Part shown: positions 20,172-39,192 of the stretch, piece after piece
How positions within the stretch are numbered: the first letter of the stretch is position 1
Layout of the letters: each line of letters begins with the position of its first letter
Assembly: GCA_047517485.1 (NCBI GenBank)
Contig: JAKZSU010000011.1
Coordinates: forward strand, 1 to 54,698
Length of the DNA stretch: 54,698 nt
Source: Alphaproteobacteria bacterium
Lineage (GTDB): Bacteria > Pseudomonadota > Alphaproteobacteria > UBA7887
Reading direction: 5' to 3'
The notes under the pieces: generated by a model
What the model saw: only the letters and a program-made list of their open reading frames with translations
What the model was told of the DNA's origin: nothing
Database searches by the model: none
Program-made: the position numbers and the translations under genes

Positions 20172-22463
20172 CTACGCGGTCAGGCGGAAATAGAGCATCG
20201 GTAACTGCTCGGGCAGCCTTTCCAGCTTGTCGAACTGCATCACGTTGCGCCGGCCGAAGATGCGGCTGAGGTAACTATCGCCGCCGGAATCCAAGCCGAC
20301 GCAGAACACGTCGATGCCATCCTGCGCGAGACCATGGATGACCCGGCGGGCATCCTCGACCAGATAGGTTCGATCCTGCACGTCGATGTCGGACGGCTCG
20401 CCGTCGGTGATCACCAGAAGCAGCCGGCGATGGGTCTGTTGGCGCTTGAGATCCTGGGCGGCATGACGCATCGCCGCGCCGATACGGGTGGAATAGCCGC
20501 CGGTCAGGCCGGCGAGATACGACCGCGCGGTCTCGCCGTAGGGCTTGTCGAAATCCTTGATGCGATAATAGCGAACGTCGTCGCGCCGATTCGAACAAAA
20601 CGCCGCGATCGCGAACGGATCCCCCAGGCCCGCCATGGCGTGGGCGAGCAGGGCGGTGGCTTGGCGCTCCATATCGATAACCGTCTCGGAAGATCCGATG
20701 ATCTTGTCCTTGGTCGATTCCGAGACGTCGAGCAAGACCTGGACCGACAAGTCGCGATGGCGCCGTTCGAAACGGCCATAGATCCTTGTATCGGGGGTCT
20801 CGCCGATGCGCCGGCTGATCATCGCGCTGATCGAGGCATCGATATCGAGAAAATCGCCTTCCTGTTGGCCGCGTAGGCGTTGCGGCCGGCTTACTTTTGC
20901 CGAGGTGATCAGCGCCTTGATGCGATTCACCACATAGGCGTGGCGGTCCAGGATATCGTCGATCCGATGGGCCGGGCCTTGCGTCGGCGGGTACTCGACC
21001 ACGGTGCTCCACTCGGGTCGTTCGCGACCGCTGGCGTAATCATATTCGGGATAGCGGGCGACCGGGATGCCGTCCTGCTCGGCAAGGTCCACATTGACCC
21101 GCCTGGCGTCGTCCGCGTCGCTTTGTTGGTTTTCCTCGCGCTCGCGATCAGGCGGCGTCGGATCGTCGTCATCCTGTTCCTCGATGTGAACGGAATCGAA
21201 CAATTGTTCGGCGTCCATGACCTCTGGGGGAACATCGTCGCCAAAATCCCACAGCCCCAGATTATCGTCGCGATACGCCGGTTCGACGATATAGGCCCGG
21301 GCGTTGAACTGCACCCGCATCTGACCGATATCGTTGCCTAGAAGATTACCCACCTCACGGCTTATGCCAGGATCGTCCCAGCGATCCCGGCAGCTATGGA
21401 ACATGTCCCGACCCTTGCTGATCCAACCGTCGACATCGCTGAAATCAGCGTCGATCAACGCGTGCGACAGGCGCGCCAATAGGCTGGGCGCCGTCATCAG
21501 ACCGGTCGACTGGGCGATATGGAACGGCAGCCACAGCCGGCGAAGACCGGGGAACCGGTGCATGGCGAGCTGTTCGACCCGCGCGTCCTCGATCAGCGAC
21601 ACCAGTGCGACCTGGACCGGTTTGAGTTTGGCGATCGGGAATTGCGGCCCGCCAAAGGTCATATGGGCGCCAATATGGGCGAGTGCGGCGCGGTAAAGAT
21701 CTTTTGCCTGCTCACCGCGAAATCCCGGGTAGGCGGTGGGAATGCGGATGATCCCGGTCGAATACCCGGCGCGCCGGCGAATATAATCCGGCGCCGTCAC
21801 CGGCGGCTCGCGCAACGGCAGCCGGATGCCCCAAAGGGCATTGAGAAAGGCCTTCAGCTCGACCGCCAAATCGGCGTAGACGACTTCGTTCGACTCGCGT
21901 TCCAGCCAAACCTCGGCCTCCGGATCGGCAAACGAGAAGTACTCCAGCCGCCGTTCCTTATCGGTTCCCGACAGACGGACGCCGGCCATGATCCAAGCTT
22001 CCAGGCGCGACACGTTGAGTTTCGCCAACAGGGCATCCATCTGGGCCAGAACCGGCGGTACCGATTCCGGTGCCAGATCGGCGAACCGTTCCATCAACCC
22101 GAGCCAGGACCCGAAGCGGCTGGCGTCGCCGTCAAGGCGTCGCGCGGCGACAACCGCGGCGGCGGGCAAATGTTCCGCCGCCCCGACCCCGGCCTTGATG
22201 GCAAAAGAGGAGACGATGTCGGCTAAGGAAAATGCCCGCTCGGGACCCACCAAGCGCGCCACTTCGGGGGAATAGCGGATAAAGGACTGCACCACGGCCG
22301 AACCGTACCCCGCCTGATCGAGCTTGCGGCAAGCCCGCAGCCAGGGCGCGCCGAGGGGTTCGGGAAAATGGCGCAGGGCCGCGCCAGTCAATTGGCTGTC
22401 GCCGTCCAGCGCATCACCCGGGGCGACGATTTTGAGAAAGTCCTTCGATTCCTTGTCGGCCAT
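20172..22463 (-). CDS. CbbO/NorD-like vWA-domain adaptor protein
   Basis: SLIEDARVE, YRDDN, RYPEYDY, MIDAS LLDVSES...T...TDGEP, YLVEDAR. Start at MADKES; the track extension to 22679 runs through a MITE. Confidence 0.88.
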   Translation of the reverse strand: MADKESKDFLKIVAPGDALDGDSQLTGAALRHFPEPLGAPWLRACRKLDQAGYGSAVVQSFIRYSPEVARLVGPERAFSLADIVSSFAIKAGVGAAEHLPAAAVVAARRLDGDASRFGSWLGLMERFADLAPESVPPVLAQMDALLAKLNVSRLEAWIMAGVRLSGTDKERRLEYFSFADPEAEVWLERESNEVVYADLAVELKAFLNALWGIRLPLREPPVTAPDYIRRRAGYSTGIIRIPTAYPGFRGEQAKDLYRAALAHIGAHMTFGGPQFPIAKLKPVQVALVSLIEDARVEQLAMHRFPGLRRLWLPFHIAQSTGLMTAPSLLARLSHALIDADFSDVDGWISKGRDMFHSCRDRWDDPGISREVGNLLGNDIGQMRVQFNARAYIVEPAYRDDNLGLWDFGDDVPPEVMDAEQLFDSVHIEEQDDDDPTPPDREREENQQSDADDARRVNVDLAEQDGIPVARYPEYDYASGRERPEWSTVVEYPPTQGPAHRIDDILDRHAYVVNRIKALITSAKVSRPQRLRGQQEGDFLDIDASISAMISRRIGETPDTRIYGRFERRHRDLSVQVLLDVSESTKDKIIGSSETVIDMERQATALLAHAMAGLGDPFAIAAFCSNRRDDVRYYRIKDFDKPYGETARSYLAGLTGGYSTRIGAAMRHAAQDLKRQQTHRRLLLVITDGEPSDIDVQDRTYLVEDARRVIHGLAQDGIDVFCVGLDSGGDSYLSRIFGRRNVMQFDKLERLPEQLPMLYFRLTA

Positions 22464-22471
22464 CGGCTCTA

Positions 22472-22733
22472 GAGCACGTCTTGCCTTGATGGAATCGGAT
22501 TGACCGCGTTCCCGCATCCCGTGGCTAGGCGCGCGGCGCCGCACGATGTGGGTGGGCACGCTAAGCCGCGCAACAACGCCACGGGATGCGGGATCGCGGC
22601 CTTCGGTGGGGAATATTGGCTTTTCGTGGGCGTTGCGACCGTCGGCCGATGCGCCGCATCGCCCGTCGCGCCGCGCCACCTCGAAAAGCCAATTTGTCCC
22701 ATCAAACCGTTCCCATCAAGGTAACACGTGCTC
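22472..22733. mobile_element. MITE-like palindromic element, 262 bp
   Basis: 32-bp terminal inverted repeats (22472-22503 vs 22702-22733; 27/32 by manual alignment) enclosing two internal hairpin arms (22504-22599, 22615-22693). Confidence 0.8.
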
Positions 22734-22738: not shown

Positions 22739-23548
22739 TCAGGCGCAGGCGGCGATCGCCGAGCCGAGGGCCCGGCGGATGTCGGGGTCGTCGGTGATCG
22801 GCAACACCAAGCCGATCTCGCACGCCTCGCCCAGCGGGATACCGCGTCCCACCAATTGGCCGACATGGATCAGCATGCGGGTCGAGGCGCCTTCATCGAG
22901 TCCGTGTCCCTTGAGATTGCGCGACCGCTCGGCGATCGAGACCAGTTTGGCGGCCAGGGGTTTTTCGACGCCCGCTTCGTGGGCGATAATCTCGGCCTCG
23001 AGGTCAGCCGCCGGATATCCGAAATCGATGGCGCCGAACCGTTGCTTGGTCGACTCCTTCAAGTCCTTGAGGACGCTCTGATATCCCGGGTTATAGGAAA
23101 TCACGAGCTGAAAATCCGGGTGCGCCTTCAAGACTTCGTTCTTCTTTTCCAGCGGCAATATTCTGCGATCATCGGTCAGCGAGTGAATGACCACCGTGGT
23201 ATCCTGTCTCGCTTCGACGATTTCATCGAGATAGCAGATCGCGCCGTGGCGCACCGCCAAGGTCAGCGGACCGTCGTGCCAGACCGTGCCGTCGGCATCG
23301 AGCAGGTAACGGCCCACCAGATCGGACGCAGTCATGTCCTCGTGGCACGACACGGTGATCAGCGGTCGTTCGAGACGCCACGCCATATGCTCGACGAACC
23401 GGGTCTTTCCGCAGCCGGTGGGTCCCTTGAGCATGAGCGGCATGCGGTCTTGATAGGCCGCCTCATAATGCGTTGTTTCGTTACCGATCGGGCGATAATA
23501 GGGCTCGTCGGCAATCAAATAGTCTTTTAACGGCATCACGCGAATCAC
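22739..23548 (-). CDS. cbbQ: CbbQ/NirQ/NorQ family AAA+ ATPase (MoxR group)
   Basis: EPYY, Walker [23 protein letters not shown], Walker [21 protein letters not shown]. Start may be 23536. Confidence 0.9.
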
Positions 23549-23674: not shown

Positions 23675-24715
23675 TTATCGATGGGTACCGGTTTTTTCGT
23701 TCGGAATGCCATCCATTTCGCATTCCTCGGTGCCCACCGTACTGCGGGTGATCCCCTCGACCATCTCGCGAGTGCCATCGGGATCGGTGATCCACTTCTT
23801 GTAGAAGTCGAACGGGCATTCGGCGACGCCCTGATCGCCTTCGCCGGAATTGATCAGGCCGGTGTAGCCGCGATGCAGAAGCTTGAACAAATGGTTCTCG
23901 GATTGTCCGTTCTTGCGGGCGTCGCGGATCGCCGACGTCGAAAGCTGGGCGTATTGGATGCCCATCTCTTCCTCGGCACAGGCGCCCAGGGTTCGACCGT
24001 CGAAGCCGATGATGGAGGAATATCCGAAATACGAATAGACACCGTCAAACCCGGTCGCATTGGCCACCGCGACATAGACGTTGTTCGACCAAGCCATGGC
24101 CTTCGCCATCGTCACTTGTTGTTCCTTAGCCGGGTACATATAGCCCTGGCAGCGGATAATCAGCTCGGCGCCCTTCATCGCGCAGTCGCGCCAGATCTCC
24201 GGATAGTTTCCGTCATCACAAATGATCAGGCTGATCTTCAAGCCCTTGGGACCATCGCTGACGTAGGTGCAATTGCCGGGATACCAGCCCTCGATCGGCA
24301 CCCACGGCATGATCTTGCGATACTTCTGCACGATCTCGCCTTGATCGTTCATCAGTATGAGGGTGTTGTAGGGCGCCTTGTTGGGATGTTCCTCGTGACG
24401 TTCGCCGGTCAGCGAAAAAACGCACCAGACCTTGGCTTTGCGGCAGGCTTCGGCGAAAACTTCGGTTTCCGCGCCGGGGCATTCCGACGCGGTCTCGTAC
24501 ATTTCCTTTTCGTCGTACATGATCCCGTGGGTGCTGTATTCGGGAAAGATCACCAGATCCATTCCGGGAAGGCCAACCTTCATCCCTTCCATCATCTCGA
24601 CAATCTTTCGGCAATTGTCGAGAACGTCTTCCTTGGTGTGCAGCCGCGGCATCTTATAATTGACGACCGCTACGCCAACAGTGTCTTTACTGCTGGAAAT
24701 ATCGCCGTGATACAT
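23675..24715 (-). CDS. amiE: Aliphatic amidase (nitrilase superfamily)
   Basis: N-terminus [24 protein letters not shown]; catalytic E (FPEYS), K (YRKI) and C ([13 protein letters not shown]); GGAGG RBS. Confidence 0.96.
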
Positions 24716-25362
24716 GGTTGCCTCCGTTATTCATATGATGCTTGGGGTTCATTTTCTCGTTCATCCAAACCGCCGTGGGCGGACCAACGAGTTCGTCTGT
24801 TGAATCACCGTCCTAGCCATTCGCCGCTATCGGGTGATCGAAATGCGGCGCGATCAGTGATCCCGCCGCTATCAAAGCCCTTCTCCATTGCGGTCGACGC
24901 GCCACGCAAACGCGTGCCGCCGGTAACCGCCAGAAAATCGAAAAGTGAAACTAAAGACGCCCACTCGCTGCGGCTGAGCCGCATTTGATGGCTTGGACAC
25001 TCGCTTAACTCCGGTCAACGGGCAAGAAGTGTCGGCGCTGACGCCCTACCCCATCAAAATTTTCATAGCAAATCTTGAATCGTGTGCCGTTAATTTAAGA
25101 TCACAAAGCGGATCGTGTCAATTTCGAAGTCGCGCGCGCACTCGACGCTCTCCTCGCATCGCTCATGCCATGATGACGCCTCGGACGGCGCGGCGCTGTC
25201 GGGCCAGCGGTACCGAACCTGGCACATTTTCAATTTCGTACAACCCATGGATATCATGATATAGTTTATGAAATTGGGGGATGCACGCCTTTGTAAGAAG
25301 TCGGGAAAACGAGAAAACGCGGGCGCGCGGATACAAGCTAGGTAGTGCAGAGAGAGACTGTC

Positions 25363-26484
25363 ATGGCGAGGGAACTCCAGGGAAGCGAGCCTTGGCGCGT
25401 TGGGGCGCTGTGGTCCCAGACCGGCGTGACCGCTGTCATTGAGGAGAGTCAACTTAAGGGCACGCTGCTGGCGATCGGAGAGATCAACGAAGCCGGCGGA
25501 ATCAACGGCCGCGAACTGGTGCCGGTGATTTACGATCCACTGTCGGAGCCGACAAATTTTGCCCGTTTGGCGGACCGCCTGCTGACCGAGGACGACGTTA
25601 CCACAATTTTCGGTTGCTACACGTCGAGCAGCCGCAAGGCGGTGCTGCTGGTGGTTGAGCGCCGCAATGGCCTGCTGTGGTACCCGACCCTGTACGAGGG
25701 CTTCGAGTATTCCCCGAACGTCATCTACACCGGCGCGGCGCCGAACCAGAACAGCATCAAACTGGCCGAATACATGATGGAGCTTTACGGCCCGCGTTTC
25801 TTCTTCGTCGGCTCCGATTACATTTATCCGCGCGAATCCAACCGCATCATGCGCGAGCTTCTGGACGCGCGCGGTGGGACCGTGGTGGGCGAGCGTTATC
25901 TCGATCTTCTCGCTGGACCGGAAGATTTCCGACCGGTCATGCGCGACATAGACCAGACCCGACCGGACGTCGTCTTCTCGACCGTGGTCGGCCAGGCGAC
26001 CGCCCATCTTTACCAATGTTATGCCGATGCGGGGCTCGACCCCAAGGTGACGCCGATCGCCAGCTTGACCACCACAGAAGCGGAAATTGGACTAATGGGC
26101 GCCGATGTCGGCGAGGGGCACATCACCGCCGCCGCCTATTTCGAAGGTGTGGAAACCGAAGCCAACAGCGCGTTTGTCTCCAAATATAAGAAAAGATTCG
26201 GCCCCGGCGAGGCCACCAACATGTGCGTCGAGGCGGCGTATTTCCAAGTCCACATATTCGCCAAGGCCTTGGCCGCGACCAACACGATGGATACCGACAT
26301 TCTCCGGCCGATGGTGCTGGGCAGCGAGTTCAACGCCCCCCAGGGCCGCATCAGTATCGACGGCTCCAATAGCCATACCGATCTATGGACCAGGGTCGGC
26401 AAAGCGAACCGGCGCGGACACTTCGATATCGTCAGCGAGTCGCAAATGGCGGTGAAGTCGGATCCCTACCTGATTAGTCTTTGA
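25363..26484 (+). CDS. amiC: AmiC-like cytoplasmic amide sensor / negative regulator (PBP fold)
   Basis: VGALWSQTGVT, GCYTSSSRK, YPTLYEGFEYS, APNQNS, GSDYIYPRESN; no signal peptide; adjacent to amiR. Confidence 0.88.
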   Translation: MARELQGSEPWRVGALWSQTGVTAVIEESQLKGTLLAIGEINEAGGINGRELVPVIYDPLSEPTNFARLADRLLTEDDVTTIFGCYTSSSRKAVLLVVERRNGLLWYPTLYEGFEYSPNVIYTGAAPNQNSIKLAEYMMELYGPRFFFVGSDYIYPRESNRIMRELLDARGGTVVGERYLDLLAGPEDFRPVMRDIDQTRPDVVFSTVVGQATAHLYQCYADAGLDPKVTPIASLTTTEAEIGLMGADVGEGHITAAAYFEGVETEANSAFVSKYKKRFGPGEATNMCVEAAYFQVHIFAKALAATNTMDTDILRPMVLGSEFNAPQGRISIDGSNSHTDLWTRVGKANRRGHFDIVSESQMAVKSDPYLISL

Positions 26485-26500: not shown

Positions 26501-27076
26501 ATGCCTTCTCTGGAAAGTTTGCGGCAGCTTCGCGTTTTGGTCGTCCATCCGGCCGATCGCGACGGCGACGGCATCATTCGTCATCTCCAAGGTATCGGTT
26601 GCCGGGTCGAGGGGATGTGGCCGCCCCCAGCCCGGTTGCCCGACAGTCTCGATGTCGTGTTCTACTTGATCGACGACCAGACCCGGCGCTCGCTCCCCTG
26701 GTTCGCCGACCTGCCGCCCGCCGCCATCGTCGCTATCGTAGACCATGGCACGGCCGACGTGCTTGGCCTGCTTTCGGACTGTAGTCCCCAAGCGGTGGTG
26801 AGCAAGCCCGCCGACTCCTTCGCGATTTTGTCCAGCTTGATCTTGGCCCGGCGCATTTATCGCTACGAGGATCGGTTGCAAAACAAACTCAGAAAGCTCG
26901 AAGAAACCATCCGCTCGATACGCACCGTGGAAAAGGCGAAGTCGATCCTCATGAAAAGCAAAAACATCGCGGAAAAGGAAGCATACGAGCAAATTCGAAC
27001 CCACGCGATGAACCGGAGATTGCCCATAGGCAAGGTTGCGTCTACGATTATTGATGCAAGCGATTTAATAGTTTAG
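26501..27076 (+). CDS. amiR: AmiR-like ANTAR-domain antitermination regulator
   Basis: Pseudo-receiver N-terminus (LR.LRVLVVHP..DG), coiled coil, ANTAR VEKAKSILM...E.EAY..IR..AMN.R. Confidence 0.9.
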   Translation: MPSLESLRQLRVLVVHPADRDGDGIIRHLQGIGCRVEGMWPPPARLPDSLDVVFYLIDDQTRRSLPWFADLPPAAIVAIVDHGTADVLGLLSDCSPQAVVSKPADSFAILSSLILARRIYRYEDRLQNKLRKLEETIRSIRTVEKAKSILMKSKNIAEKEAYEQIRTHAMNRRLPIGKVASTIIDASDLIV

Positions 27077-27146
27077 TGTTTTTTGTAAAGAACCAAGTGA
27101 TGTACCCACTTTTGTCCTGGTTACGCGCCGGGACAGACCCTATAGG

Positions 27147-27213
27147 CGGCAGCGGCGCCGTTAATTGGAACGGGCAAGGAAGCCCTACGTGTTGACGAAG
27201 CGTGGGGCTTTTC
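27147..27213 (+). promoter_or_regulatory. ANTAR-binding dual-hairpin leader with overlapping intrinsic terminator
   Basis: P1 CGGC-AGCGGC-GCCG (27147-60), 11-nt linker, P2 GGGC-AAGGAA-GCCC (27172-85); both hexaloops have A1/G4. P2 overlaps terminator AAGCCCTACG...CGTGGGGCTT-TTC (27180-27213). Confidence 0.85.
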
Positions 27214-27278: not shown

Positions 27279-28550
27279 ATGAAAATCGAAAGACGGTCGT
27301 TTCTGAAGGGCACTGCCGCGGTCGGCGCCGGTGCGGCGGCCTTGTCGGTTACCAAGGCTCCTTACGGGTTTATACGCAATGCCGCCTTTGCGGCCACCGA
27401 TACGGTTGAGGTCGGGGTCCTGTTTTCGCTGACCGGCGGCCTGTCGATCATCGAGAAATCGCTTGCCGACGCGACGCTCATGGCGATCGCCGAAATCAAT
27501 GACGCTGGCGGCGTGCTGGGCAAGCAAATCGTACCGATCCTCGAAGACGGCGCCAGCGACGCCAAGACCTACAACGAAAAAGCCAACAAGCTGGTCATTC
27601 AGGACCGGGTTCCGACGGTGTTCGGGTCCTACACATCGGCCAGTCGCAAAGCCGTGCTGCCGGTTTTCGAGAAGCGCAAGAACCTCTACTTCTATCCGAC
27701 CTATTATGAAGGCTTCGAGTGCTCGAAGAACGTCGTCTACACCGGCGCGGTTCCCAACCAGCAGCTCAGCAATTACATCCCTTGGATTATCAAGAACTTG
27801 AACAAGAAGAAGTTCTTCATCGTCGGGTCGAACTACATCTACCCGCGCGAGATGGCCAAGGTCTGCAAAATCCTGGTCGAACAAGCCGGTGCCGAGTGGA
27901 TCGCCGACGAATATCTCGAACTCGGGCATTCCGAGTGGGGCGCGATGGTCAAGAAGATCAAGGACAGCGGCTGCGACGCGGTTTTGTCCAACGTGGTTGG
28001 CGACTCGGTTGTCGCGTTCTACCGCGAGTTCGGCAACCAGGGCCTCAAACACGACCAACTGCCGATCTGCGCGACGGTGACGTCGGAGATCGAGATCGCC
28101 GCAATGGGCGCGGAATACGCGGCGGGCAGCTTTACCTCGTTCCCGTATTTCCAAGCCATCGATACCGACGCCAACAATTCGTTCATCGAACGCTATCGCA
28201 AGTACGTCAACGATTCCAACGCGGTGACCCATCACGCGCTGGAAAGTTCGTATTTCCAAGTCTTCCTGTGGGCGCAGGCGCTCGAGAAGGCCGGCGAGGA
28301 GACCCCGGCGGCGATCCGCGAGGGTGTGAAGGGGCAAGAATTCGACGCCCCCAACGGCCACGTCAAAATCGACGCGGAAAACCTCCATGCCTGGCTTACG
28401 CCGCGCATCGCGCAATGGGATTCGAATGGCCAGGGCGTGATCATCGACGAATACCCGGCGCCGATCATGCCGCTACCATACGTCGCCTACGGCGAAACCG
28501 AATCCGATCTGTTCTGTAAGGAAGGCGGACTCGACACCAGTAAGCTCTAG
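27279..28550 (+). CDS. urtA: Urea/short-amide ABC transporter substrate-binding protein (UrtA/FmdD-like), Tat-exported
   Basis: Twin-arginine RRSFLK; VGVLFSLTG, EDGASD, TSASRKAVLP, YEGFECS, GSNYIYPR. Confidence 0.88.
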   Translation: MKIERRSFLKGTAAVGAGAAALSVTKAPYGFIRNAAFAATDTVEVGVLFSLTGGLSIIEKSLADATLMAIAEINDAGGVLGKQIVPILEDGASDAKTYNEKANKLVIQDRVPTVFGSYTSASRKAVLPVFEKRKNLYFYPTYYEGFECSKNVVYTGAVPNQQLSNYIPWIIKNLNKKKFFIVGSNYIYPREMAKVCKILVEQAGAEWIADEYLELGHSEWGAMVKKIKDSGCDAVLSNVVGDSVVAFYREFGNQGLKHDQLPICATVTSEIEIAAMGAEYAAGSFTSFPYFQAIDTDANNSFIERYRKYVNDSNAVTHHALESSYFQVFLWAQALEKAGEETPAAIREGVKGQEFDAPNGHVKIDAENLHAWLTPRIAQWDSNGQGVIIDEYPAPIMPLPYVAYGETESDLFCKEGGLDTSKL

Positions 28551-28560
28551 CCAATAAAGT

Positions 28561-28597
28561 GCCTCCGGCCGGGGAGTAAGCTCCTTGGCCGGAGCGC
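28561..28597 (+). terminator. Stem-loop after urtA
   Basis: CTCCGGCCGGGGAG-TAAG-CTCCTTGGCCGGAG. Confidence 0.6.
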
Positions 28598-28631
28598 CTA
28601 AGAAAACGAATAGGGCAAGGCTGGGTTCACC

Positions 28632-29525
28632 ATGTGGGAGACAGTTTTCATTGGATTGAGCGTGGGTTCGATCCTGCTCCTCGTCGCGCTTGGCCTGACC
28701 ATCACCTACGGCGCCATGGGCGTGATCAACATGGCGCACGGTGAGCTCGTCATGGTCGGCGCCTACACGACGGTGATGATGGGGACTTATTTTGGCCTGA
28801 ATATATTCTTTGCCATTCCCGCCGCTTTTCTGATGGCCGCCTTCGTCGGGTTGATCATCGAGCGGCTGGTGGTGCGCAATCTTTACGGGCGTCTGCTCGA
28901 TACATTGTTGGCCACCTGGGGCGTGGCGATCCTGATCCAGCAAGCGGTGCGGCTGGAATTCGGCCTCGCGTTCTTCGGCATTCATATCGATGGTCTTGGA
29001 GTTGGCCTACAAAGAGTGGATGTGCCGACGATCCTGCGTGAAACGTTCGAGGTTGGGGGCGTCGTCGTTCAGCCCTACCGTAGTTTCATCATTCTGTTGA
29101 CCGTCGCCCTGGTCGGCCTGACCTGGCTGTTGATGTACCGGACCTCGTTCGGCACCCAGGTCCGGGCGATTATGCGCAATCCGAAAATGGCCGCCGCCTG
29201 CGGCATTGACGTCACCCGGATCAACGCCTTGACCTTCGCCTACGGCTCCGGCCTGGCCGGGGTCGCGGGGGTGATGATGTCGGGCTTCAAGACCGTCAGC
29301 CCGGGCATGGGCACGTCGTTGGTGGTCGATGGATTCATGGTCGTCGTGGTCGGCGGCATCGGTAGCCTGTTGGGTTCGGTGGTGTCGGCGGGGTTCCTGG
29401 GACAGCTCAACGGGATATTCGCGACCTTGTCGAACGACATCCTCGCGCGCGCCGTGGTGTTCGGCGCGGTCATCCTGATTATCGTCTGGCGCCCCAACGG
29501 GCTATTCAATTTCCGGGGACGGTAG
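28632..29525 (+). CDS. urtB: Urea ABC transporter permease UrtB
   Basis: GVINMAHGE, LYGRLLDTLLATWG, VDGFMVVVVGG. Confidence 0.9.
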   Translation: MWETVFIGLSVGSILLLVALGLTITYGAMGVINMAHGELVMVGAYTTVMMGTYFGLNIFFAIPAAFLMAAFVGLIIERLVVRNLYGRLLDTLLATWGVAILIQQAVRLEFGLAFFGIHIDGLGVGLQRVDVPTILRETFEVGGVVVQPYRSFIILLTVALVGLTWLLMYRTSFGTQVRAIMRNPKMAAACGIDVTRINALTFAYGSGLAGVAGVMMSGFKTVSPGMGTSLVVDGFMVVVVGGIGSLLGSVVSAGFLGQLNGIFATLSNDILARAVVFGAVILIIVWRPNGLFNFRGR

Positions 29526-29528
29526 GCG

Positions 29529-30665
29529 ATGTCGACCAAGAGAAAACTCGAATTCTTGGCCTACGCCATCTTCATTGTGATTACCTTCCTGATGCCGTTG
29601 TTCCTCGACGTGTTCTGGCTGAACCGTATCGCCAAGTACCTGGTGTACGGCATGCTGGGGGTCGCTATTTCGCTGTCCTGGGGCTATGCGGGCATCCTGA
29701 ATTTGGGCCAAGGGCTGTTTTTCGGCGCCGGGGCTTATATGCTGGCGATGTCGCTCAAGCTCGCCAGCGCGACCAGTTTGCAACAGGGCTCCGACACCCC
29801 GGTGCCCGATTTTATGTTGTGGAACGCCGAGCCGGGATCGCTCACCGACCTCTGTTGCATTACCAAGGTGTCTTTCCTGTGGATCCCGTTTCAGGCGCAG
29901 TGGTTCGGCATCTTCATGGGGTTCGTCCTACCCGTGGCCCTGGCCTTCATTCTGGGGAACATCATATTCCGCAAGCGTATTTCGGGCGTTTTTGTCGCTA
30001 TCATTACCCTCGCGACAGTGCTCTTGGTGCGTCTCTTGATGATCGATTTCCAGCCCTTGACCAATGGATTCAATGGCCTGACCGATCTCGGATGGTTCAC
30101 CATGGGCGGGATAGAATTCGACCCCTATATGGTCGAGACCTATTACGTAGTCGCGATTTCGCTTGCCGTGGTGCTGATCGCGACGCGCTGGCTGGTCAGT
30201 ACCCGCGCCGGTCTGGTCCTGCAAGCGGTGCGCGATGACGCCAACCGGGCGCGCTACCTCGGCTTCGACGTATCGTCGTATCAAATTTTCTTCTTCTGCG
30301 TATCGGCGCTGATCGCCGGCTTTGCCGGAATGCTTTACGTGATCGCGGCCGAGTTCGCCTCGCCGACTTTCATGGACCTTGCCTTCAGCATCACCATGGT
30401 GGTTTGGGCCGCGGTGGGCGGGCGGTCGTCTCTGCTCGGCGCCTGCATCGGGGCGATACTGATCAATCTTATCGAAGCGACAGTCAGCGAGACCGAAATG
30501 TTCGTCGAGGCGTGGCAGGCAATTATCGGATTGCTGTTCGTCGGCGTCGTGCTGTTCCTGCCCCGGGGCTTGGCGGGGTTGGCGAGCGACATCACCGACC
30601 GGGTGCTCGGCGCTGGCAGACAATCGAGACGGACTCTCGAACAAGAAGCGCCGGCGGGAGAATAG
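29529..30665 (+). CDS. urtC: Urea ABC transporter permease UrtC
   Basis: WGYAGILNLGQG.FFG.GAY, PDFMLWN, WAAVGGR. Confidence 0.9.
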   Translation: MSTKRKLEFLAYAIFIVITFLMPLFLDVFWLNRIAKYLVYGMLGVAISLSWGYAGILNLGQGLFFGAGAYMLAMSLKLASATSLQQGSDTPVPDFMLWNAEPGSLTDLCCITKVSFLWIPFQAQWFGIFMGFVLPVALAFILGNIIFRKRISGVFVAIITLATVLLVRLLMIDFQPLTNGFNGLTDLGWFTMGGIEFDPYMVETYYVVAISLAVVLIATRWLVSTRAGLVLQAVRDDANRARYLGFDVSSYQIFFFCVSALIAGFAGMLYVIAAEFASPTFMDLAFSITMVVWAAVGGRSSLLGACIGAILINLIEATVSETEMFVEAWQAIIGLLFVGVVLFLPRGLAGLASDITDRVLGAGRQSRRTLEQEAPAGE

Positions 30666-30673
30666 GTGGCGCC

Positions 30674-31417
30674 ATGGAAGCTTTGAAACTCGACGGACTC
30701 GGGGTTGGATTTGGTGGCTTCAAGGCCGTCGATAATTTCAGCATGACCGTCGCGGAAGGCGAGCTGCGGGTTCTGATGGGGGCCAATGGCGCCGGCAAGA
30801 CCACCTTGATCGATCTGATCAGCGGCAAGACGAAATCAACCGAAGGCAAGGTCTTCCTGCACGACAAGGACATCACCAACTGGCACGAGCATAAGATCGC
30901 GCGCGAGGGGGTCGGCCGCAAATTCCAAATTCCCACGGTGTTCCGCGAACTTACGGTGCGGGAAAATTTCGAGGTCGCGGGATTTCGCAATCGTGGGGTG
31001 CTCATGAATGCGGGGCCGCGCCACAGGAAAGTATCCGCCAAGCGAGTCGAGGAAGTCATCGACTTGGGCAATCTTCGCGAAAAGGAAAGCGACCGGGCCG
31101 GCAATCTTTCGCACGGCGAAACCCAATGGCTCGAGCTCGGCATGGTGCTGGTGCAGGATCCCAAGGTCATCCTGCTGGATGAACCCTCGGCCGGGATGAC
31201 GGTGCAAGAGACCTTGAAAACATCGCAAATTATCAATGACCTGAAAGGGCAGCGCACCCTCGTCGTCGTCGAGCACGACATGGCGTTCGTGCGCCAGATC
31301 GCCGAAATGATCACGGTGATGCATCTCGGCAAGGTGCTGGCCGAGGGAACGATCCAGGACATCGAGAAAAATCAGGCGGTGAAGGATGTCTATCTCGGCC
31401 GCGGGGGCATCGGCTGA
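30674..31417 (+). CDS. urtD: Urea ABC transporter ATP-binding protein UrtD
   Basis: FGGFKAV, GANGAGKTT, GVGRKFQ.P, LSHGETQWLE.GM, VEHDM. Confidence 0.9.
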   Translation: MEALKLDGLGVGFGGFKAVDNFSMTVAEGELRVLMGANGAGKTTLIDLISGKTKSTEGKVFLHDKDITNWHEHKIAREGVGRKFQIPTVFRELTVRENFEVAGFRNRGVLMNAGPRHRKVSAKRVEEVIDLGNLREKESDRAGNLSHGETQWLELGMVLVQDPKVILLDEPSAGMTVQETLKTSQIINDLKGQRTLVVVEHDMAFVRQIAEMITVMHLGKVLAEGTIQDIEKNQAVKDVYLGRGGIG

Positions 31418-32112
31418 TGCTCACGTTCGATCGCCTCAACAGCTTCTATGGCGGCAGCCACATCCTGCACGATCTCAGTTTCACGATCGAAAAAGGCACC
31501 ATTCTCACGGTCATCGGTCGCAACGGCGTCGGCAAGACGACGCTGCTGAAGACCATCCTCGGGCTCACCGACTCGTCGACCGGCAGCATCAAGCTCAACG
31601 GCGAGGAAATTGGCGGCAAGCCGACTTTCGAACGCGCCCGCATGGGGATCGGGTATGCACCGCAGGGGCGCGAAATTATTCCCGATTTCACCGTCCGCGA
31701 GAATATTTTAATGGGCGGCTTCGCGCGTGGAAACGGGTCGCCCAGCATCCCCGATGTAGTGCCCGAACTTTTTCCCTATCTGATGGAGAATCTCGGCCGC
31801 GCCGGAGGGCTATTGTCGGGCGGACAGCAACAGCAACTTGCAATCGCCCGCGCGCTCGCGGCCGAGCCGAGCTTGCTTTTGCTCGACGAACCGACCGAGG
31901 GCATTCAACCGAATATCGTCGAGCAGATCGAGGAAACCATCCAGGTGCTCAATCAAAAACTCGATTTGACCATCATCCTGGTCGAACAGAACCTCGAATT
32001 CGCGCGCTCCGCCAGTCATTCGTTCGTGATGATGGAAAAAGGCCAAATCGTGGCGAACGGCGACACCGATGCCCTGACCGACGATGTCGTGGCGAAGCAC
32101 ATGACGATCTAA
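31417..32112 (+). CDS. urtE: Urea ABC transporter ATP-binding protein UrtE
   Basis: YGGSHIL, GRNGVGKTT, PQGREI, LSGGQQQQLAI, DEPTEGIQP. Confidence 0.92.
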   Translation: MLTFDRLNSFYGGSHILHDLSFTIEKGTILTVIGRNGVGKTTLLKTILGLTDSSTGSIKLNGEEIGGKPTFERARMGIGYAPQGREIIPDFTVRENILMGGFARGNGSPSIPDVVPELFPYLMENLGRAGGLLSGGQQQQLAIARALAAEPSLLLLDEPTEGIQPNIVEQIEETIQVLNQKLDLTIILVEQNLEFARSASHSFVMMEKGQIVANGDTDALTDDVVAKHMTI

Positions 32113-32144: not shown

Positions 32145-32597
32145 ATGGAGCTGAGGATCACCGAGGTTATCGGTTTCGCCAACGACCCCGCCCTGGCAGC
32201 GCGGTTGCACGACATCGGACACGCCGGCCGCATCGAACACCTGGTTCTCGATCCCGACGACGTGCATCGCCGCCGCTTGCGGGCACGGAGCGACAAGGGC
32301 ACCGACTGCCTGATCGCTCTGCCCATGGACCAACCGCTCGGCGACGGCGCGGTCCTGGCGCTCGAGGAAGAGTGGGCGATCGTCGTCCGCCTGGCCGAAC
32401 AGCGCTGGCTTAAACTCGCGCCCCGTGACCCGCCGGCGGCGCTTCAGCTCGGCTACTTCGCGGGCAACCTGCACTGGCGGGTCAAGTTCGAGGGCGAGCG
32501 CCTGCTGGTCGCCCTGGAGGGTCCGAAAGAGGATTACCTCGCGCGGCTGGGTTTGTTTCTCGACGACGGTCGCGCCACCGAGGTGAGTGATGGCTGA
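32145..32597 (+). CDS. ureE: Urease accessory protein UreE-like (no His-rich tail)
   Basis: RRRLR...D.G...I.LP....L.DG.VL and GY.AGNLHW; C-terminal part of track ORF 31386..32597. Confidence 0.8.
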   Translation: MELRITEVIGFANDPALAARLHDIGHAGRIEHLVLDPDDVHRRRLRARSDKGTDCLIALPMDQPLGDGAVLALEEEWAIVVRLAEQRWLKLAPRDPPAALQLGYFAGNLHWRVKFEGERLLVALEGPKEDYLARLGLFLDDGRATEVSDG

Positions 32598-33270
32598 TCC
32601 GGCGATTGACCTTATCCTGCTGCAGCATGGTGACAGTTTTTTCCCCTCCGGCGGAGTCTCGTTTTCCTGGGGCTTGGAAACCCTGGCCGAGGATGGCCAT
32701 GTCGGCTCCCCTGCCAGCGTTTCCGATTTTCTGGTCAACCAAATACGCTATCGCTGGGCGACCAGCGATCGCGCCGCGTTGGCGGCGACCTATCAAGCCG
32801 GTGACGACGTTGAGGCGATTGTCGCGATCGATTTGCTGGTCGACGCCCAGACCTTGGCGGCCGAGTTCCGCGAAGGGTCACGGCGTGCCGGCCATGCCTT
32901 GTTGTCGGTGCACGAGAAGCTCGGGACGCCGCTGGCGGCGGACTTTCATGACCGGGTGCGGGCCGGCGACTCCCCAAGCCATGCCGCGGTCGTACAAGGC
33001 CTGGTTTGGCGCGGCGTCGGGCTCGACCTCGAACAGTCGGAACTCCTGTCCGCCCACACCTATTCGATCGGTATTTTGGGAGCGGCGGTGCGGCTTGGCG
33101 TCATCGGCCATATCGACGCCCAGCGGACGCTCGCGACCGCCCGGAACGCTGTCGTCGAAATCCTTCGCCAAGCGGCGCCTTCGGTGGGCGAGATGTCCGC
33201 CTTCACGCCGGCGGCGGAGATCGCGGTGATGCGCCACGAGACCGCCGAGACGCGGCTGTTCGCGAACTAA
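32590..33270 (+). CDS. ureF: Urease accessory protein UreF
   Basis: DSFFPSGG.SFSWGLE, AAVRL, C-terminal HE....RLF.N. Confidence 0.9.
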   Translation: MADPAIDLILLQHGDSFFPSGGVSFSWGLETLAEDGHVGSPASVSDFLVNQIRYRWATSDRAALAATYQAGDDVEAIVAIDLLVDAQTLAAEFREGSRRAGHALLSVHEKLGTPLAADFHDRVRAGDSPSHAAVVQGLVWRGVGLDLEQSELLSAHTYSIGILGAAVRLGVIGHIDAQRTLATARNAVVEILRQAAPSVGEMSAFTPAAEIAVMRHETAETRLFAN

Positions 33271-33308: not shown

Positions 33309-34007
33309 ATGATTCTGGTACCCACGGAACTCGAGCGATTGACGATCTTCACGGCAGCGGAGCTGGCGCGCAAGCATCGCGCCAAGGGCTTGCTGCTCAA
33401 CCATCCCGAGGCGGTGGCGATCATCGCCGACGAGATCCTCGAAGGGGCGCGCGAGGGCCGGGGCGTGGCCGAGCTCATTGCCTTTGGATCGACCATTCTC
33501 ACCACCGACGACGTGATGCCCAACGTCGCCGACCTGATGCCGATGATCCAGGTCGAGGGCACCTTTCCCGATGGGACCAAACTGGTGACCGTCCATGACC
33601 CGATCCGCCCCGGCAAGAACAAGGCGGAGGCGGACGCGGTGCGACCGGGCGAGATCATCGCCGCCGAGGGCGAGATCGAAATCAATGCCGGGCGTGCCAA
33701 GGCCGAGATCAAAGTCGTCAATACCGGCGATCGGCCGATCCAGGTCGGCAGCCATTATCATTTCTTCGAGACCAATAAGGCGCTCGATTTCGATCGCGCC
33801 GCCGCCTTCGGGATGCATTTGGACATTCCCGCCGGCACCGCGGTGCGTTTCGAGCCGGGTGAAAGCAAATCGGTGGTGCTCACCGAATTCGGCGGCACAG
33901 GCGAGTTGTTCGGCCTCAACAATCTTACCGACGGCGCGTCGCGTAGCGCGGTGCGCAAGGACGCGGCGCTACGGCGCGCCCGCGAACGCGGCTTCAAGGG
34001 GGCATGA
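33309..34007 (+). CDS. ureAB: Fused urease gamma/beta subunit
   Basis: Gamma: [23 protein letters not shown]; beta: [29 protein letters not shown]; one ORF. Confidence 0.93.
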
Positions 34008-34010: not shown

Positions 34011-35723
34011 ATGGCTAAGATGACCCGCCGCGACTACGCGCAAATGTACGGCCCGACCACCGGCGACGCGGTGCGCTTGGGCGACACCTCGTTGCTCGCC
34101 GAGGTCGAGCACGATTTTGGCGTACCCGGTGACGAATGTTTGCATGGCGGCGGCAAGACCTTGCGCGACGGCCTCGGGCTGACCCCGGGTTACGACAGCG
34201 CCATGGGATCGCTCGACATGCTGCTGTGCAACGCCCTGGTGATCGACCCGGTGCTCGGCATCGTCAAGGGCGATATCGGCATCAAGGACGGCCGCATCGC
34301 CGGGGTCGGCAAGGCCGGCAACCCGGCCACCATGGACGGCGTCGACACGAATTTAATTTGCGGCGCGGCGACCACCGCGCGCGATGCGGAGGGCCTGATC
34401 GCCACCCCGGGCGGTATCGACGTGCATGTCCATTTCGATTCCGCCCAGCTGTGCGAGCACGCGATCTCGTCCGGCATCACCACCATGATCGGCGGCTCGC
34501 TCGGCCCGATCACCGTCGGCATCGACTGCGGCGGCGCCTGGAACGTCGGCAAGATGCTGCAGTCGGCGGAGCACTGGCCGATCAATTTCGGCTTTCTCGG
34601 GCGCGGCAATTCGTCGAAACCGCGCTCTCTGCTCGATCAGATCGAGGGCGGGTGCGTCGGGCTCAAGATCCACGAGGATTGGGGCGCCATGCCGGCGGTG
34701 ATCGACACCTGTCTCGGGGTCGCCGACGAGTTGGACTTCCAAGTGCAACTCCACACCGACACCTTGAACGAAAGCGGCTTCGTCGAGGACACCCTGGCGG
34801 CGATCGACGGCCGTACCATCCACATGTATCACACCGAAGGCGCCGGCGGCGGCCACGCGCCGGACATCATCCGCGTTGCCGGCGAACGCAACTGTCTGCC
34901 GTCGTCGACCAATCCGACCAATCCCTTCACCGTCAACACCTTCGACGAGCACCTCGATATGACCATGGTGTGCCATCACCTGAGCCCGTCGATCCCCGAA
35001 GACGTGGCGTTCGCGGAAAGCCGGATCCGCGCTCAAACCATCGCCGCCGAGGATGTCCTGCACGATTTGGGCGCGATCTCCATGCTGGGCTCGGACAGCC
35101 AGGGCATGGGGCGGATCAACGAGGTGATCTGCCGGGTCTGGCAGCTCGCCTCCAAGATGAAAGACCAGCGCGGCCGCCTCGACGAGGAAACCACCACGCT
35201 TGGCGACAACGAGCGGATCAAACGCTTCATCGCCAAGTACACCATCAACGCGGCGCGGACTTTCGGCATCGACCAGCACGTGGGATCGCTGGAGAGCGGC
35301 AAGCTCGCCGACGTGGTGCTGTGGCGGCCCGCCTTCTTCGGCATTAAGCCGGAGCTGATCATCAAGGGCGGCTTCATCGTCTGGGCGGCGATGGGCGACA
35401 GCGCGGCGTCGCTGATGACCTGCGAGCCGCTGCAGATGCGGCCACAATGGGGCGCCTTCGGCGAAGCACGAAAGGCCTTGAGCGCCAGCTTCGTCAATCC
35501 GCTGGCGATCGACGGCGGGCTGGCCGGCGCGCTCGGCCTGACCAAGGCCCTGCTGCCGACCGCAGGGACACGCAAGCTCAACAAGCAGCACATGATGCAC
35601 AATTCCGCGTGCCCCAAAATCACCGTCGATGCGCAGACCTTCGACGTTTTCGTCGATGGCGAATTGGCGACCTGCGAGCCCGCCGAGGTGCTGCCCTTGG
35701 CGCAGCGTTACATGTTGCGATGA
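34011..35723 (+). CDS. ureC: Urease alpha subunit, divergent substrate loop
   Basis: Ni-site motifs [29 protein letters not shown], flap MVCHH, SDSQ. Confidence 0.93.
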
Positions 35724-36349
35724 GCGCGGATTCGGGCGCACCGGCACCGGCGCGGATCGGCATTGGCGGCCCCGTCGGCTCGGGCAAGACCGCCTTGATC
35801 GAGCGTCTGATTCCGAGCTTGGAGGCGCGCGGTCTGAGTGTCGGCGTGGTCACCAACGACCTGGTGACCCGGGAAGACGCCGAGCGGTTGCGGGGCAGCG
35901 GCCTGATCGCGCCCGAGCGGGTGCTCGCGGTGGAGACCGGCGCCTGCCCGCACACCGCGATTCGCGAGGATCCGACGATGAACTTGGCCGCCATCGATCG
36001 CCTTGTCGAGAGCTTCCCCGACCTGACGGTTATCCTGTTGGAAAGCGGTGGCGACAATCTGGCGTCGACATTCTCGCTCGATCTCGTCGATTATTGGCTG
36101 TTCGTCATCGACGTGGCGGGCGGCGACGACATCCCGCGCAAGAAGGGCCCGGGAATAGTGCGCTCGGACCTGCTGATCATCAACAAAACCGATCTCGCCC
36201 CCTTGGTCGGCGCCGATCTCGATCGCATGATCGAGGAAGCGCTAGCGGTGCGCGGCGGCAGGACCGTGCTGACCACCAACTGTGCCACCGGCGACGGTAT
36301 CGACGCTTTGTTGGCGCAACTATCGCACGACGTCCTGTTCGATGGATGA
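35720..36349 (+). CDS. ureG: Urease accessory GTPase UreG
   Basis: [26 protein letters not shown]; ATGA overlap with ureC. Confidence 0.93.
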
Positions 36350-37223
36350 CGTGACGCCGGCGGCCGCGATCACCGCACCGGGCTCGACGCCGCGGCGGAC
36401 CGAAGGTCGGCTGGAGCTTGTCTTCGCGCCGGATGCGGATGGGAAAAGTTTCCTGGAGAAACAATTCGCGTCCTATCCGTTTCACGTCTGTCGGGTCCAA
36501 TATCTCGACTCGAAGGTGCCGAATATGGCGAGTCTGTATCTGCAATCGAGCGCCGGCGGCGTGTTCGCCGGCGATCGGCTCGCCACCTCGATCACCTGCA
36601 AGGCCGGTGCGATGGCGCATGTCACGACCCAAGCCTCGACCGTTGTCTATCGCATGCCCGACGGCGAGGCCGATCTACAAACCGACCTGGAAGTCGCGCC
36701 CGGCGGCCTTCTCGAGGTCCTGCCCGATCCGGTGATCCTGTTTCCCGAAGCACGGCTCAACAACCGGCTGAGCGTGAAATTGGCCGACAATGCCACGGCG
36801 ATCGTCGCGGATGCTTTCCTATCCCACGACCCGGACGGCGAGAATAGACCGTTCGGATTTTATCGCAGCGAGACCGAGATTACCGACACCGCCGGGCGAC
36901 GTCTGGTGCGCGACCGATTCCACACCACCGGCGAAGGGTGTCGCGCGCAACGCGCCGGCATCATGGGTGCCTTCCGCATGCAGGCGACGATAATGGCGGC
37001 GAGTACCGTGGTGCCGGCGACGACATTGCTCACCGCTTTGCGCGACGGTCTGGCGGCCACGCCGTCGGTCTATGCGGCGGCCTCGACCCTGCCCAACGCG
37101 TGCGGTGCCTGGGTGCGCTTGCTGGCGGCGGACGGCGCCACGCTCAAACACGCGATGACAGAAGTTTGGATCGCGCTGCGACGCGGCATTACCGGGAATG
37201 TTCCTGCCCTACGGCGTAAATAG
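36342..37223 (+). CDS. ureD: Urease accessory protein UreD
   Basis: YPFH, S.AGG...GD, TTQAST.VY, PDPVI.F, C-terminal LRRK. Confidence 0.88.
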
Positions 37224-37383: not shown

Positions 37384-39192
37384 TTATCTCCGGCCGAACA
37401 GGCGCTCGATATCGGCGAGTTTGAGTTCGACGTAGGTCGGCCGGCCGTGGTTGCATTGGCCGGAATGCGGGGTGGTTTCCATTTCGCGCAACAGCGCGTT
37501 CATTTCGGCGCCGCTCAGCCGACGGCCGGCGCGAACGCTGCCGTGGCACGCCATGGTGCCACAGACGTCTTCGAGTCGTTCGCGCAAGCTGAGCGCTTGA
37601 TCGAGCGCGGCGATATCGTCGGCGAGATCCTGCACCAGGCCGCGCACGTCGATTTCGCCGAGTAGCGCGGGCACCTCGCGGACCACTACCGCGCCGTCGC
37701 CGAAGGCCTCGATCACCAGGCCGAGGTCGGCGAACTCCGACGCGCGGGCGACCAGCGCCTCGGCCAGCGCCGGATCGAGTTCGACGACTTCGGGGATCAG
37801 CAGGATCTGGCGGGCGACACCGGAGGCGGCGAGGCTCGCGCGCATGCGTTCGAGCACCAGGCGTTCGTGCGCCGCGTGTTGATCGACGATAACGATGCCG
37901 TCGGCGGTCTGGGCGATGATGTAGGTCTCGTGCAATTGGCCGCGCGCGGCACCGAGCGGCCAGCGTGCATCGGGCGTGTCGTCGCGGACCGACTCGACCC
38001 GCGCCGCTGGCGCGACGCCGTGCACCGGCGCCTGGTAAATCGCCGCCGCCTCGGCAAGACCGGCGGACGGGCGGTGCGGCACCTGCCACTGGCCACCACC
38101 GCTCCCGCCGCTATGGGCGAAGATATGTCCGGTCATCGGCTCGACCCGCGCCGCTCCCAGCGCCGCGTCGGCGACCGTGGTCGCGGCGCGATGGCCGGCC
38201 TGGTCGAGGGCGTGACGAAGCGCGCCGACGATGAGACCGCGGATTACCGCCGGCTGGCGAAACCGCACCTCGGCCTTGGTGGGATGGACGTTGACGTCGA
38301 CCTCGCCCGGCGCAAGGGTGAGGAACAGGGCGACCAGCGGATGGCGGTCGCGCGCGAGCAGGTCCTGATAGGCGCCGCGCACCGCGCCATAGAGCAGACG
38401 ATCGCGCACCGGGCGTCCGTTGACGAAAAGATACTGCTGGTTGGCGCGGCCGCGGTTGAAGGTCGGCAGGCCGGCCCAGCCGGTGAGCTGGACACCGTCA
38501 CGCTCCGCCGCGACGGGAAGCGCATTGTCGATGAAGTCGCGCCCCATCACCACGCCGAGGCGATGGCGCCCGGCTTCGAGCAGATCGCCTTGCGCGATGT
38601 CCGCGTTCAAGCGCTTGCGGCCGTCGACGTTTACGGTGAAGGCGATTTCGGGATAGGCCATGGCAATCTGGTTGACCATATCGAGCGCGGCGGAAGTCTC
38701 GGCGCGATCCGACTTGAGAAACTTGAGCCGCGCCGGGGTGGCGAAGAACAGATCGTGCAACTCGACGCGGGTGCCGCGATCGAGCGCCGCCGGGCGCGGC
38801 GCGGCAACCACGCCGCCCTCGACCGAAAGCATCCACGCCTGATCCGTGCCGCGCGCCCGACTGGTGATCGACAGCCGGCCGACCGCGCCGATCGACGGCA
38901 AGGCCTCGCCGCGAAAACCGAGCGCGCGAATGTCGCCGAGATCATCGCCCGGCAGCTTCGACGTGACGTGGCGCTCGACCGCGAGGGCGAGTTCGTCCGG
39001 GGTCATCCCGGCCCCGTCGTCGACCACCGAAATCAGAGTCTTGCCGCCGTTGGCGAGGGCGACGTCGATGCGGGTGGCGCCGGCGTCGACCGCGTTCTCG
39101 ACGAGTTCCTTGAGCGCGTTGGCGGGACGTTCGATCACTTCGCCAGCGGCGATGCGATTGACCAGGCCTTCGGGGAGCCGGCGCAGGGTCAT
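37384..39192 (-). CDS. mutL: DNA mismatch repair endonuclease MutL
   Basis: [39 protein letters not shown]. Confidence 0.98.

Follow-up and report, generated by a model that had tools for sequence, protein, structure and literature searches.

Urease is a textbook case among enzymes, and its active-site loops are generally regarded as invariant. In a 54,698-nucleotide stretch of alphaproteobacterial DNA (contig JAKZSU010000011.1, positions 1 to 54,698; hereafter the window), the gene ureC (34011-35723, + strand) encodes a 570-aa urease alpha subunit in which several of these loops are rebuilt. The protein belongs to a short-loop clade, here called Ure2, which on sequence grounds is a distinct urease subfamily without prior characterisation; no paper describing the clade or its loop was found in the open-access literature searched. 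Ure2 most likely represents a true urease, and gene context makes urea the probable substrate of the window UreC. An earlier, sequence-only reading of the window had proposed a new nickel amidohydrolase, a claim that we regard as not established.

The window UreC is a member of the urease alpha-subunit family according to curated models, scoring 816 bits with TIGR01792 ('urease subunit alpha'; cut-off 680) and 864.6 bits with NF009686 (cut-off 354). PF00449 and PF01979 were both matched in the profile search, and the alignment with Klebsiella aerogenes UreC extends from end to end (57-58% identity, E 2e-207). By comparison, canonical copies in relatives of the window genome score 950-990. As had been read from the letters alone, the metal and catalytic motifs are intact. 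The nickel ligands H139, H141, K219, H248, H274 and D362 (numbering of the 570-aa protein) correspond to H134, H136, K217, H246, H272 and D360 of K. aerogenes, with K219 at the carbamylatable lysine position, whereas H221, D223, H322 and R338 are the equivalents of His219, Asp221, the flap residue His320 and Arg336. All ten nickel-binding, catalytic and substrate-orienting residues are invariant in a 22-sequence alignment. The canonical loop GGGTGPAxGTxATTCTPGPW and the alanine of SDSQAMGR are both missing from the window protein. In our alignments, this canonical pocket loop is a mark of the canonical clade and not of catalysis as such.

Comparison with K. aerogenes UreC and a 128-sequence alignment revealed HVHFDSAQL in the window protein at the place of canonical H[IV]H[FWY]ICPQQ, a loop after barrel strand 2 that is three residues shorter (14 versus 17 after GG), SDSQGMGR instead of SDSQAMGR, and a flap reading DMTMVCHH instead of DMLMVCHH. 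All four had been picked out by the sequence-only reading and are found in both alignments; the first three lie in pocket segments that differ from every canonical urease compared and are fixed throughout the clade. The flap replacement is real in the window but is not a clade trait, since of 81 sequences from 80 related loci, 41 read DMTMVCHH and 38 read DMIMVCHH. Overall, there are 28 positions at which at least 95% of 88 clade sequences share one residue and at least 90% of 22 canonical sequences share another, and because of this opposite fixation we do not attribute the pocket differences to chance. The 28 positions cluster at 138-142, 158-172, 363 and 462-476 (K. aerogenes numbering, used for all clade changes). 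A167G, T168I, T169D, G158S, T159L, I138D, C139S and A363G were each found in 88 of 88 clade sequences. The short loop together with the glycine of SDSxGMGR is likewise present in 88/88 clade members, and all 22 canonical sequences differ.

Among these changes, both substrate-contact alanines become glycine, and His166 becomes valine. In the description of the Sporosarcina pasteurii enzyme by Mazzei et al. 2020 (PMC7433671), the urea nitrogen bound to Ni(2) donates hydrogen bonds to the backbone carbonyls of Ala170 and Ala366, the distal urea nitrogen is held by Ala366 and Gly280, and the alanine Cβ at the K. aerogenes Ala363 position touches nickel-bound water. This account agrees with the sequence-only reading, which had taken backbone carbonyls of two alanines as the urea contacts. 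Since the contacts are backbone atoms, replacement of alanine by glycine keeps the carbonyls. An AlphaFold2 (AF2) model of the window UreC, built from a 22-row alignment, has the urease fold (template modelling score 0.93-0.95 to solved ureases, which are only about 48-57% identical to the model) at a mean predicted local distance difference test (pLDDT) value of 80.5. The pLDDT falls below 50 at residues 44-51, 164-173 and 464-475, exactly the clade-specific segments. Searches of the PDB with the window UreC and with a deep short-loop protein (P0124) returned no solved structure nearer than the canonical ureases. Short loops and the glycine of SDSxGMGR also occur in deeper urease-like families of the 128-sequence alignment; for this reason, the long canonical loop may be the derived state, the root of the tree being uncertain.

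Ure2 members are 78-100% identical and come from Alpha-, Beta- and Gammaproteobacteria and from plasmids, and canonical ureases reach at most 60%. The best 120 relatives of the window UreC in the protein database are all at least 86% identical, and the named ones carry the title 'urease subunit alpha', which is also the sole label, with one taxon, returned by cluster look-ups. The sequence-only reading had guessed that 'second ureases' might lie in databases under a plain urease label, and a large clade so labelled indeed exists. When one genome per species was scanned for peptide patterns taken from the window UreC, at least 587 relatives were found. The best 80 of these, which are the best-scoring loci and not a random sample, are 81-90% identical and belong to Alpha-, Beta- and Gammaproteobacteria, nearly all of them metagenome-assembled genomes (MAGs), plus Acidithiobacillus ferrianus. 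Plasmid copies at 76-80% identity were found in cultured Aminobacter, Shinella, Ancylobacter, Methylobacterium radiotolerans, M. bullatum and an Acinetobacter. Among 401 randomly sampled Pseudomonadota genomes, 150 had a UreC match, but a copy of at least 78% identity was present in four (the window genome, G099, G088 and G252); all other listed matches are at most 60% identical to the window UreC.

In phylogenetic trees, the window UreC falls within a single well-supported Ure2 branch (Shimodaira-Hasegawa-like approximate likelihood ratio test 99-100), separate from a branch of canonical ureases with equal support (99-100). Other sequences with short loops are the closest relatives of Ure2. 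A 50%-identity library merges Ure2 with the canonical ureases, its best representative being 60% identical, and thus supplied outgroups only and no fine structure. Within Ure2 the branches are short and bacterial classes are intermixed, which indicates horizontal spread; taken together with 78-100% identity over three proteobacterial classes, the short branches also speak for one conserved function. None of 22 same-family relatives of the window genome has the Ure2 cluster, all 22 having a model match that is mostly of the canonical type, and the G+C content is 0.57-0.59 over 24-32 kb of the window (amidase, regulator and transporter genes) versus 0.62-0.70 in the flanks. Both features fit acquisition of the region by horizontal transfer.

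The genes for the urease small subunits and for UreD, UreE, UreF and UreG lie beside ureC, all on the + strand. Upstream are ureE (32145-32597, 150 aa; NF009752, 174.7 bits, cut-off 162), ureF (32587-33270, 227 aa; PF01730, E 5e-29) and ureAB, which encodes a fused gamma/beta small subunit (33309-34007, 232 aa; NF009671 'bifunctional urease subunit gamma/beta', 352 bits, cut-off 243) and directly precedes ureC in related loci too. The downstream genes encode the GTPase UreG (35720-36349, 209 aa; PF02492 CobW/HypB/UreG, E 2e-30) and UreD (36342-37223, 293 aa; PF01774, E 2e-43). For context counts, we used the 61 of the 80 loci that have at least 6 kb of upstream sequence, and with sufficient flank the full order ureE-F-AB-C-G-D was found in 52/61. 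Ahead of ureE, the window carries five profile-matched genes of a Urt-like ATP-binding cassette (ABC) transporter (27279-32112, + strand): a binding protein with a twin-arginine translocation (TAT) signal (27279-28550; PF13433), two permeases (28632-29525 and 29529-30665) and two ATPases (30674-31417 and 31417-32112). The solved chain closest to the binding protein is 8tg1, followed by urea-binding UrtA proteins. The putative cargo may be urea, short amides, or both.

Upstream partners of Ure2 vary between loci. A Urt-like transporter was present in 22 of the 61, AmiE in 19, an AmiC-like protein in 18 and AmiR in 11; tandem arginase-family genes lie just upstream in 13 (14 of all 80 loci), and 19 have none of these partners. 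The tandem arginase-family genes are accompanied by HypB in 10 loci, often also by HypA, and by an NMT1-type ABC importer. Their products are 65% identical to an 'agmatinase family' ureohydrolase of Pseudomonas metformin plasmids; they match no NCBIfam equivalog and fall below the agmatinase and HutG cut-offs. As reported by Sinn et al (PMC11399263), heteromeric nickel-dependent ureohydrolases require HypA and HypB, and Aminobacter DmgH converts dimethylguanidine to dimethylamine and urea and is linked to growth on dimethylguanidine. The same article describes a urease encoded downstream of DmgH and seen by the authors as completing the pathway (PMC11399263). In two of our loci (L016, 4423-7832; L032, 2441-8088), an NMT1-type importer, a glutamine-synthetase-like gene, HypB, HypA and two arginase-family genes directly precede ureE, and similar NMT1/HypB/HypA/arginase-family clusters were observed in L003, L012, L015, L022, L023, L034, L041 and L071. 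Such clusters are probably operons for degradation of guanidine compounds that end in urease. No link to a guanidine riboswitch could be made, as Rfam searches of the window and of six DmgH- or NMT1-linked loci returned tRNAs only and neither a riboswitch nor any other family.

Cultured hosts add further contexts. The Aminobacter Ure2 operon adjoins genes for allantoinase, allantoate amidohydrolase and HupE/UreJ, that of M. radiotolerans lies beside urate catabolism genes and an annotated urtA, and the Acinetobacter operon is also next to an annotated urtA. The pocket motifs are identical in DmgH-linked (14) and AmiE-linked (19) members, which is most simply read as a single specificity throughout the clade. 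The sequence-only reading had considered its proposed substrates consistent with the amidase and AmiC/AmiR neighbourhood. The neighbourhood is present as described, but it is only one of several contexts. In some other loci, an amidase-signature enzyme (PF01425) stands directly before ureE (Arenicellales MAGs L019, L026 and L031, in the last at 6576-8093) or near it (A. ferrianus, L049, 3874-5415; NF005565, 758 bits); it would be another putative amide- or ureide-cleaving partner of Ure2.

A canonical urease cluster (ureD-A-B-C-E-F-G), whose UreC is 58% identical and has all canonical motifs, was found on another contig of the window genome. Judged by the four carriers of the random sample, Ure2 might seem to occur only together with a canonical urease. 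The host genomes overturn this view, since in 25 of 60 no UreC homologue other than Ure2 was found (E<=1e-60), with counts of 3/5, 5/5 and 17/50 in three batches. The 60 genomes were reached via the loci, with 19 of the 80 loci left out (L014 and 18 others); most are MAGs, and three of the five in the first batch are titled as chromosomes. Among 13 DmgH-linked genomes searched, 10 have Ure2 alone, two have it with short-loop paralogues only, and one has a canonical copy. No urea carboxylase was detected above cut-off in four of five DmgH-linked genomes tested. Ure2 is the only visible route for urea use in these genomes.

In Burkholderiales-type MAGs, amiE lies inside the operon, between the transporter and ureE. 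Two of them (locus L120 = G480:C213:6000-25900; L121 = G477:C16:4000-23900) carry canonical ureA-ureB-ureC genes without accessory genes. All five Burkholderiales-type genomes with both a canonical copy and Ure2 have a single ureG, which lies in the Ure2 operon, and the Ure2 maturation set therefore probably serves the canonical urease too, as one set for two ureases. Some hosts also encode Ure2-like paralogues at 62-69% identity, which again come with a fused UreAB and often occur as bare UreAB-UreC pairs without accessory genes (examples are L114, 7391-9100, - strand; L115, 8049-9758, + strand; and L117, 7733-9442, + strand). They form a long-branched sister group of Ure2 in the tree, and each of the six loci (L114-L119) has its own version of the strand-1 and strand-2 loops, none of them that of Ure2. 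Pfam searches of their neighbours gave no clear pathway. These fast-evolving paralogues appear to be more plausible candidates for altered specificity than Ure2. With Ure2, a paralogue and sometimes a canonical urease, up to three urease-family systems were observed in one genome.

The sequence-only reading had also proposed AmiC/AmiR control. In the window, an amiC-like gene for a cytoplasmic ligand sensor (25345-26484, + strand, 379 aa; best solved match 1pea, Pseudomonas aeruginosa AmiC, 308 bits) is followed by amiR (26501-27076, + strand, 191 aa; PF21332 AmiR_N and PF03861 ANTAR), so that an ANTAR-domain antiterminator is paired with a ligand sensor. A leader RNA element (27145-27212, + strand) separates amiR from the gene for the binding protein, with a P1 hairpin (27145-27162, hexaloop AGCGGC), a P2 hairpin (27172-27185, hexaloop AAGGAA) and a terminator stem (27182-27208) followed by a U-run (27209-27212). 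The 3' arm of P2 is the 5' arm of the terminator, with GCCC in common. This layout fits the consensus given for ANTAR targets (PMC8934654), namely a dual hexaloop in which the first letter is A and the fourth is G, the second loop overlapping a terminator. The leader folds with -56.8 kcal/mol (z -2.58). The same layout was found in L017 (20469-20514, - strand), L018 (2783-2829), L024 (10765-10810) and L065 (2306-2352 and 229-274), where the motif also stands ahead of an amiC-like gene.

A covariance model built from five loci (the window, L017, L018, L024 and L065) recovers sites outside its seed that precede Urt-like or AmiC genes in L065, L018, L082, L006 and, weakly, L026. Covariation was not significant for these five sequences, two compensatory pairs being reached by 56 of 500 shuffles. 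When the window was scanned with the model, only the 27145 site and a weak one at 49578-49622 (E 0.78) were found, and none in the amiE leader, suggesting that AmiR may control the transporter-urease operon rather than the amidase. Control of this operon by AmiC/AmiR is thus predicted from the leader and is well supported.

The amidase gene itself, amiE (23675-24715, - strand, 346 aa; NF009802, 704.6 bits, cut-off 427), is divergent from amiC and is followed by genes for a CbbQ/NorQ-type AAA ATPase (22739-23548, - strand; PF07728 and PF08406) and a VWA/NorD-like protein (20172-22679, - strand; PF00092). The CbbQ and VWA pair travels with amiE across loci. It also occurs in a plasmid-borne amiE-amiC-amiR operon described without urease (PMC13209695), and we therefore assign it to the amidase module and dropped it as a candidate urease activase.

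Several observations weigh against Ure2 being a true urease. The changes fall precisely on those segments that line the pocket and hardly vary among canonical ureases, two aspartates are gained (I138D and T169D), the Cβ of Ala363 is lost, and all solved ureases lie outside the Ure2 clade. The binding protein scores 398 bits on the UrtA model TIGR03407, below the cut-off of 492.75, which is why we call the transporter only Urt-like, and the AmiC-like protein, also a homologue of urea-binding proteins, reaches 347 bits, again below cut-off. All four Ure2 carriers of the random sample, the window genome included, have a canonical urease, UreC homologues besides Ure2 occur in 14 of 18 AmiE-linked genomes, and where no canonical copy was found the reason may be MAG incompleteness. 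In G480 and G477, moreover, canonical ureABC genes with their own Urt-like transporter lie about 10 kb from the Urt-AmiE-Ure2 operon, and such pairing looks like a division of labour between the two enzymes, for which it is the strongest argument.

Part of this evidence could be explained if Ure2 were a nickel amidohydrolase preferring a substituted urea, a short amide or a related compound from the Urt-like transporter. The clustering of clade-fixed changes in the β1 and β2 loops and at A363G would fit, as would the canonical urease beside it in the window genome and the other sampled carriers, the shared operon with AmiE and a binding protein below UrtA grade, the resemblance of the AmiC-like sensor to the acetamide sensor of P. 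aeruginosa, and the variation of the sister paralogues at the same pocket positions. We nevertheless consider such a substrate, or an altered or broadened specificity, unlikely. The sequence-only argument, that changed contact positions mean a different substrate, is not supported, because the contacts are carbonyls that glycine keeps, because Ure2 is so often the sole UreC homologue and because urea-linked contexts share the same pocket. Urea-releasing ureohydrolases are linked to Ure2, no other urea-degrading gene was found in four of the five genomes tested, the clade is strongly conserved, and urtA and purine-catabolism genes are neighbours in cultured hosts. A broader version, rather unlikely in our estimation, would have the whole short-loop, fused-AB branch diversify as nickel amidohydrolases whose substrates are determined by the strand-1 and strand-2 loops, with Ure2 acting on a urea analogue or small amide delivered by the Urt-like importer and the paralogues on other compounds, all labelled 'urease'.

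Alternatively, Ure2 could be a specialised isozyme that hydrolyses urea with higher affinity, or is insensitive to inhibitors arising from amide metabolism. Two urease systems side by side, each with its own transporter, a separate AmiR-type control, and fixed pocket changes with retained catalytic residues would agree with this. However, it is pure inference that overlaps with the true-urease explanation, and the many hosts with Ure2 alone do not require specialisation; we give it little credence. Second urease clusters for which no activity could be detected have been reported (PMC2868824, PMC2492869), raising the question of an inactive or non-enzymatic relic, as reported for Brucella ure2. 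A relic is very hard to reconcile with invariant ligands and catalytic residues, with 78-100% identity across classes, or with an accessory set that is complete in 52/61 loci and a gene that is the sole copy in many genomes, and we regard it as highly improbable. The true-urease reading, in turn, is supported by the conserved nickel and catalytic residues with a complete adjacent accessory set, by the genomes with no other UreC homologue and the ureohydrolases upstream, and by the purine-catabolism and urtA neighbours with one pocket across contexts.

On the true-urease reading, the ureC product would be the catalytic subunit of a working nickel-dependent urease from a horizontally mobile subfamily with its own UreE, UreF, UreG and UreD. 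The window operon would serve nitrogen scavenging, beginning with the Urt-like importer and having ureE-F-AB-C-G-D as its last part. A ligand bound to the AmiC-like sensor would free AmiR, which would then hold the dual-hexaloop RNA at 27145-27185; the overlapping terminator would be blocked, and transcription could read through into the transporter and urease genes. Urea, either imported or, in other hosts, released by neighbouring enzymes, is the substrate we infer, and it would be converted to ammonia and carbamate at the di-nickel centre with its carbamylated lysine. The clade-fixed pocket changes would represent an alternative build of the same urea pocket, and they may tune affinity or inhibitor sensitivity.

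Two observations concern the surroundings of these clusters. In the window, ureD is followed by mutL (37384-39192, - strand). A mutL gene (L117, 5117-6958, + strand) also adjoins a Ure2-like UreAB-UreC pair in another Rhodospirillaceae MAG, suggesting either a shared insertion site or a coincidence. Locus L079, filed as 'uncultured Bifidobacterium sp.', carries a proteobacterial-type amiE-cbbQ-VWA-amiC-amiR-Ure2 arrangement and is placed by the tree with Betaproteobacteria and Acinetobacter; its taxon label looks wrong, or the bin contaminated.

With 81% identity as the lower bound, Ure2 occurs in at least 80 genomes that each represent a species, and many marine and soil bacteria have no other gene of the urease family. 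As a true urease, it would reveal which features of the pocket the enzyme can do without, fill the missing urea-consuming step of guanidine-type degradation clusters, and be relevant to surveys based on ureC and to the design of inhibitors. Otherwise, new nickel-enzyme chemistry is at hand.

Two known gene systems resemble parts of the Ure2 loci. Like P. aeruginosa amiEBCRS, the window has AmiE, a CbbQ-type ATPase, an AmiC-like sensor nearest to 1pea, AmiR with its ANTAR domain, and a dual hexaloop with terminator; it differs in that the site found by the model precedes the transporter-urease operon, so that urease would be among the controlled genes. The DmgH/MefH clusters of Aminobacter and Pseudomonas are matched by the tandem ureohydrolase genes before Ure2 in 14 of 80 loci. 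In contrast to these clusters, the window has no ureohydrolase genes, and those of the MAGs are putative, assigned by identity.

Among ureases, the UreABC and UreDEFG systems of K. aerogenes and S. pasteurii have in common with Ure2 the fold, the nickel ligands, the carbamylated lysine and the four accessory proteins. Ure2 differs from them in a loop three residues shorter, the 28 fixed replacements, the fused gamma-beta subunit and the order E-F-AB-C-G-D. Fused small subunits are also found in the Helicobacter ureases, the gamma-beta fusion of H. pylori being called UreA. The Helicobacter alpha chains are 52-55% identical to our model and fall outside the Ure2 clade. H. mustelae is an example of a species with two ureases, the second being the iron urease UreA2B2; the entry 3qga is titled an iron-containing urease. 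UreA2B2 is not known to need accessory genes, whereas Ure2 keeps the full nickel maturation set. Brucella, also an alphaproteobacterium, carries a second urease cluster, ure2, described as tied to urea and nickel transport (PMC2868824). Brucella ure2 is reported as not encoding an active urease and is set apart from the window Ure2 by that description. It also differs in having ureA, ureB and ureC as separate genes. As judged from our trees and searches, all solved urease structures belong to one clade, and Ure2 is a second, widespread one.

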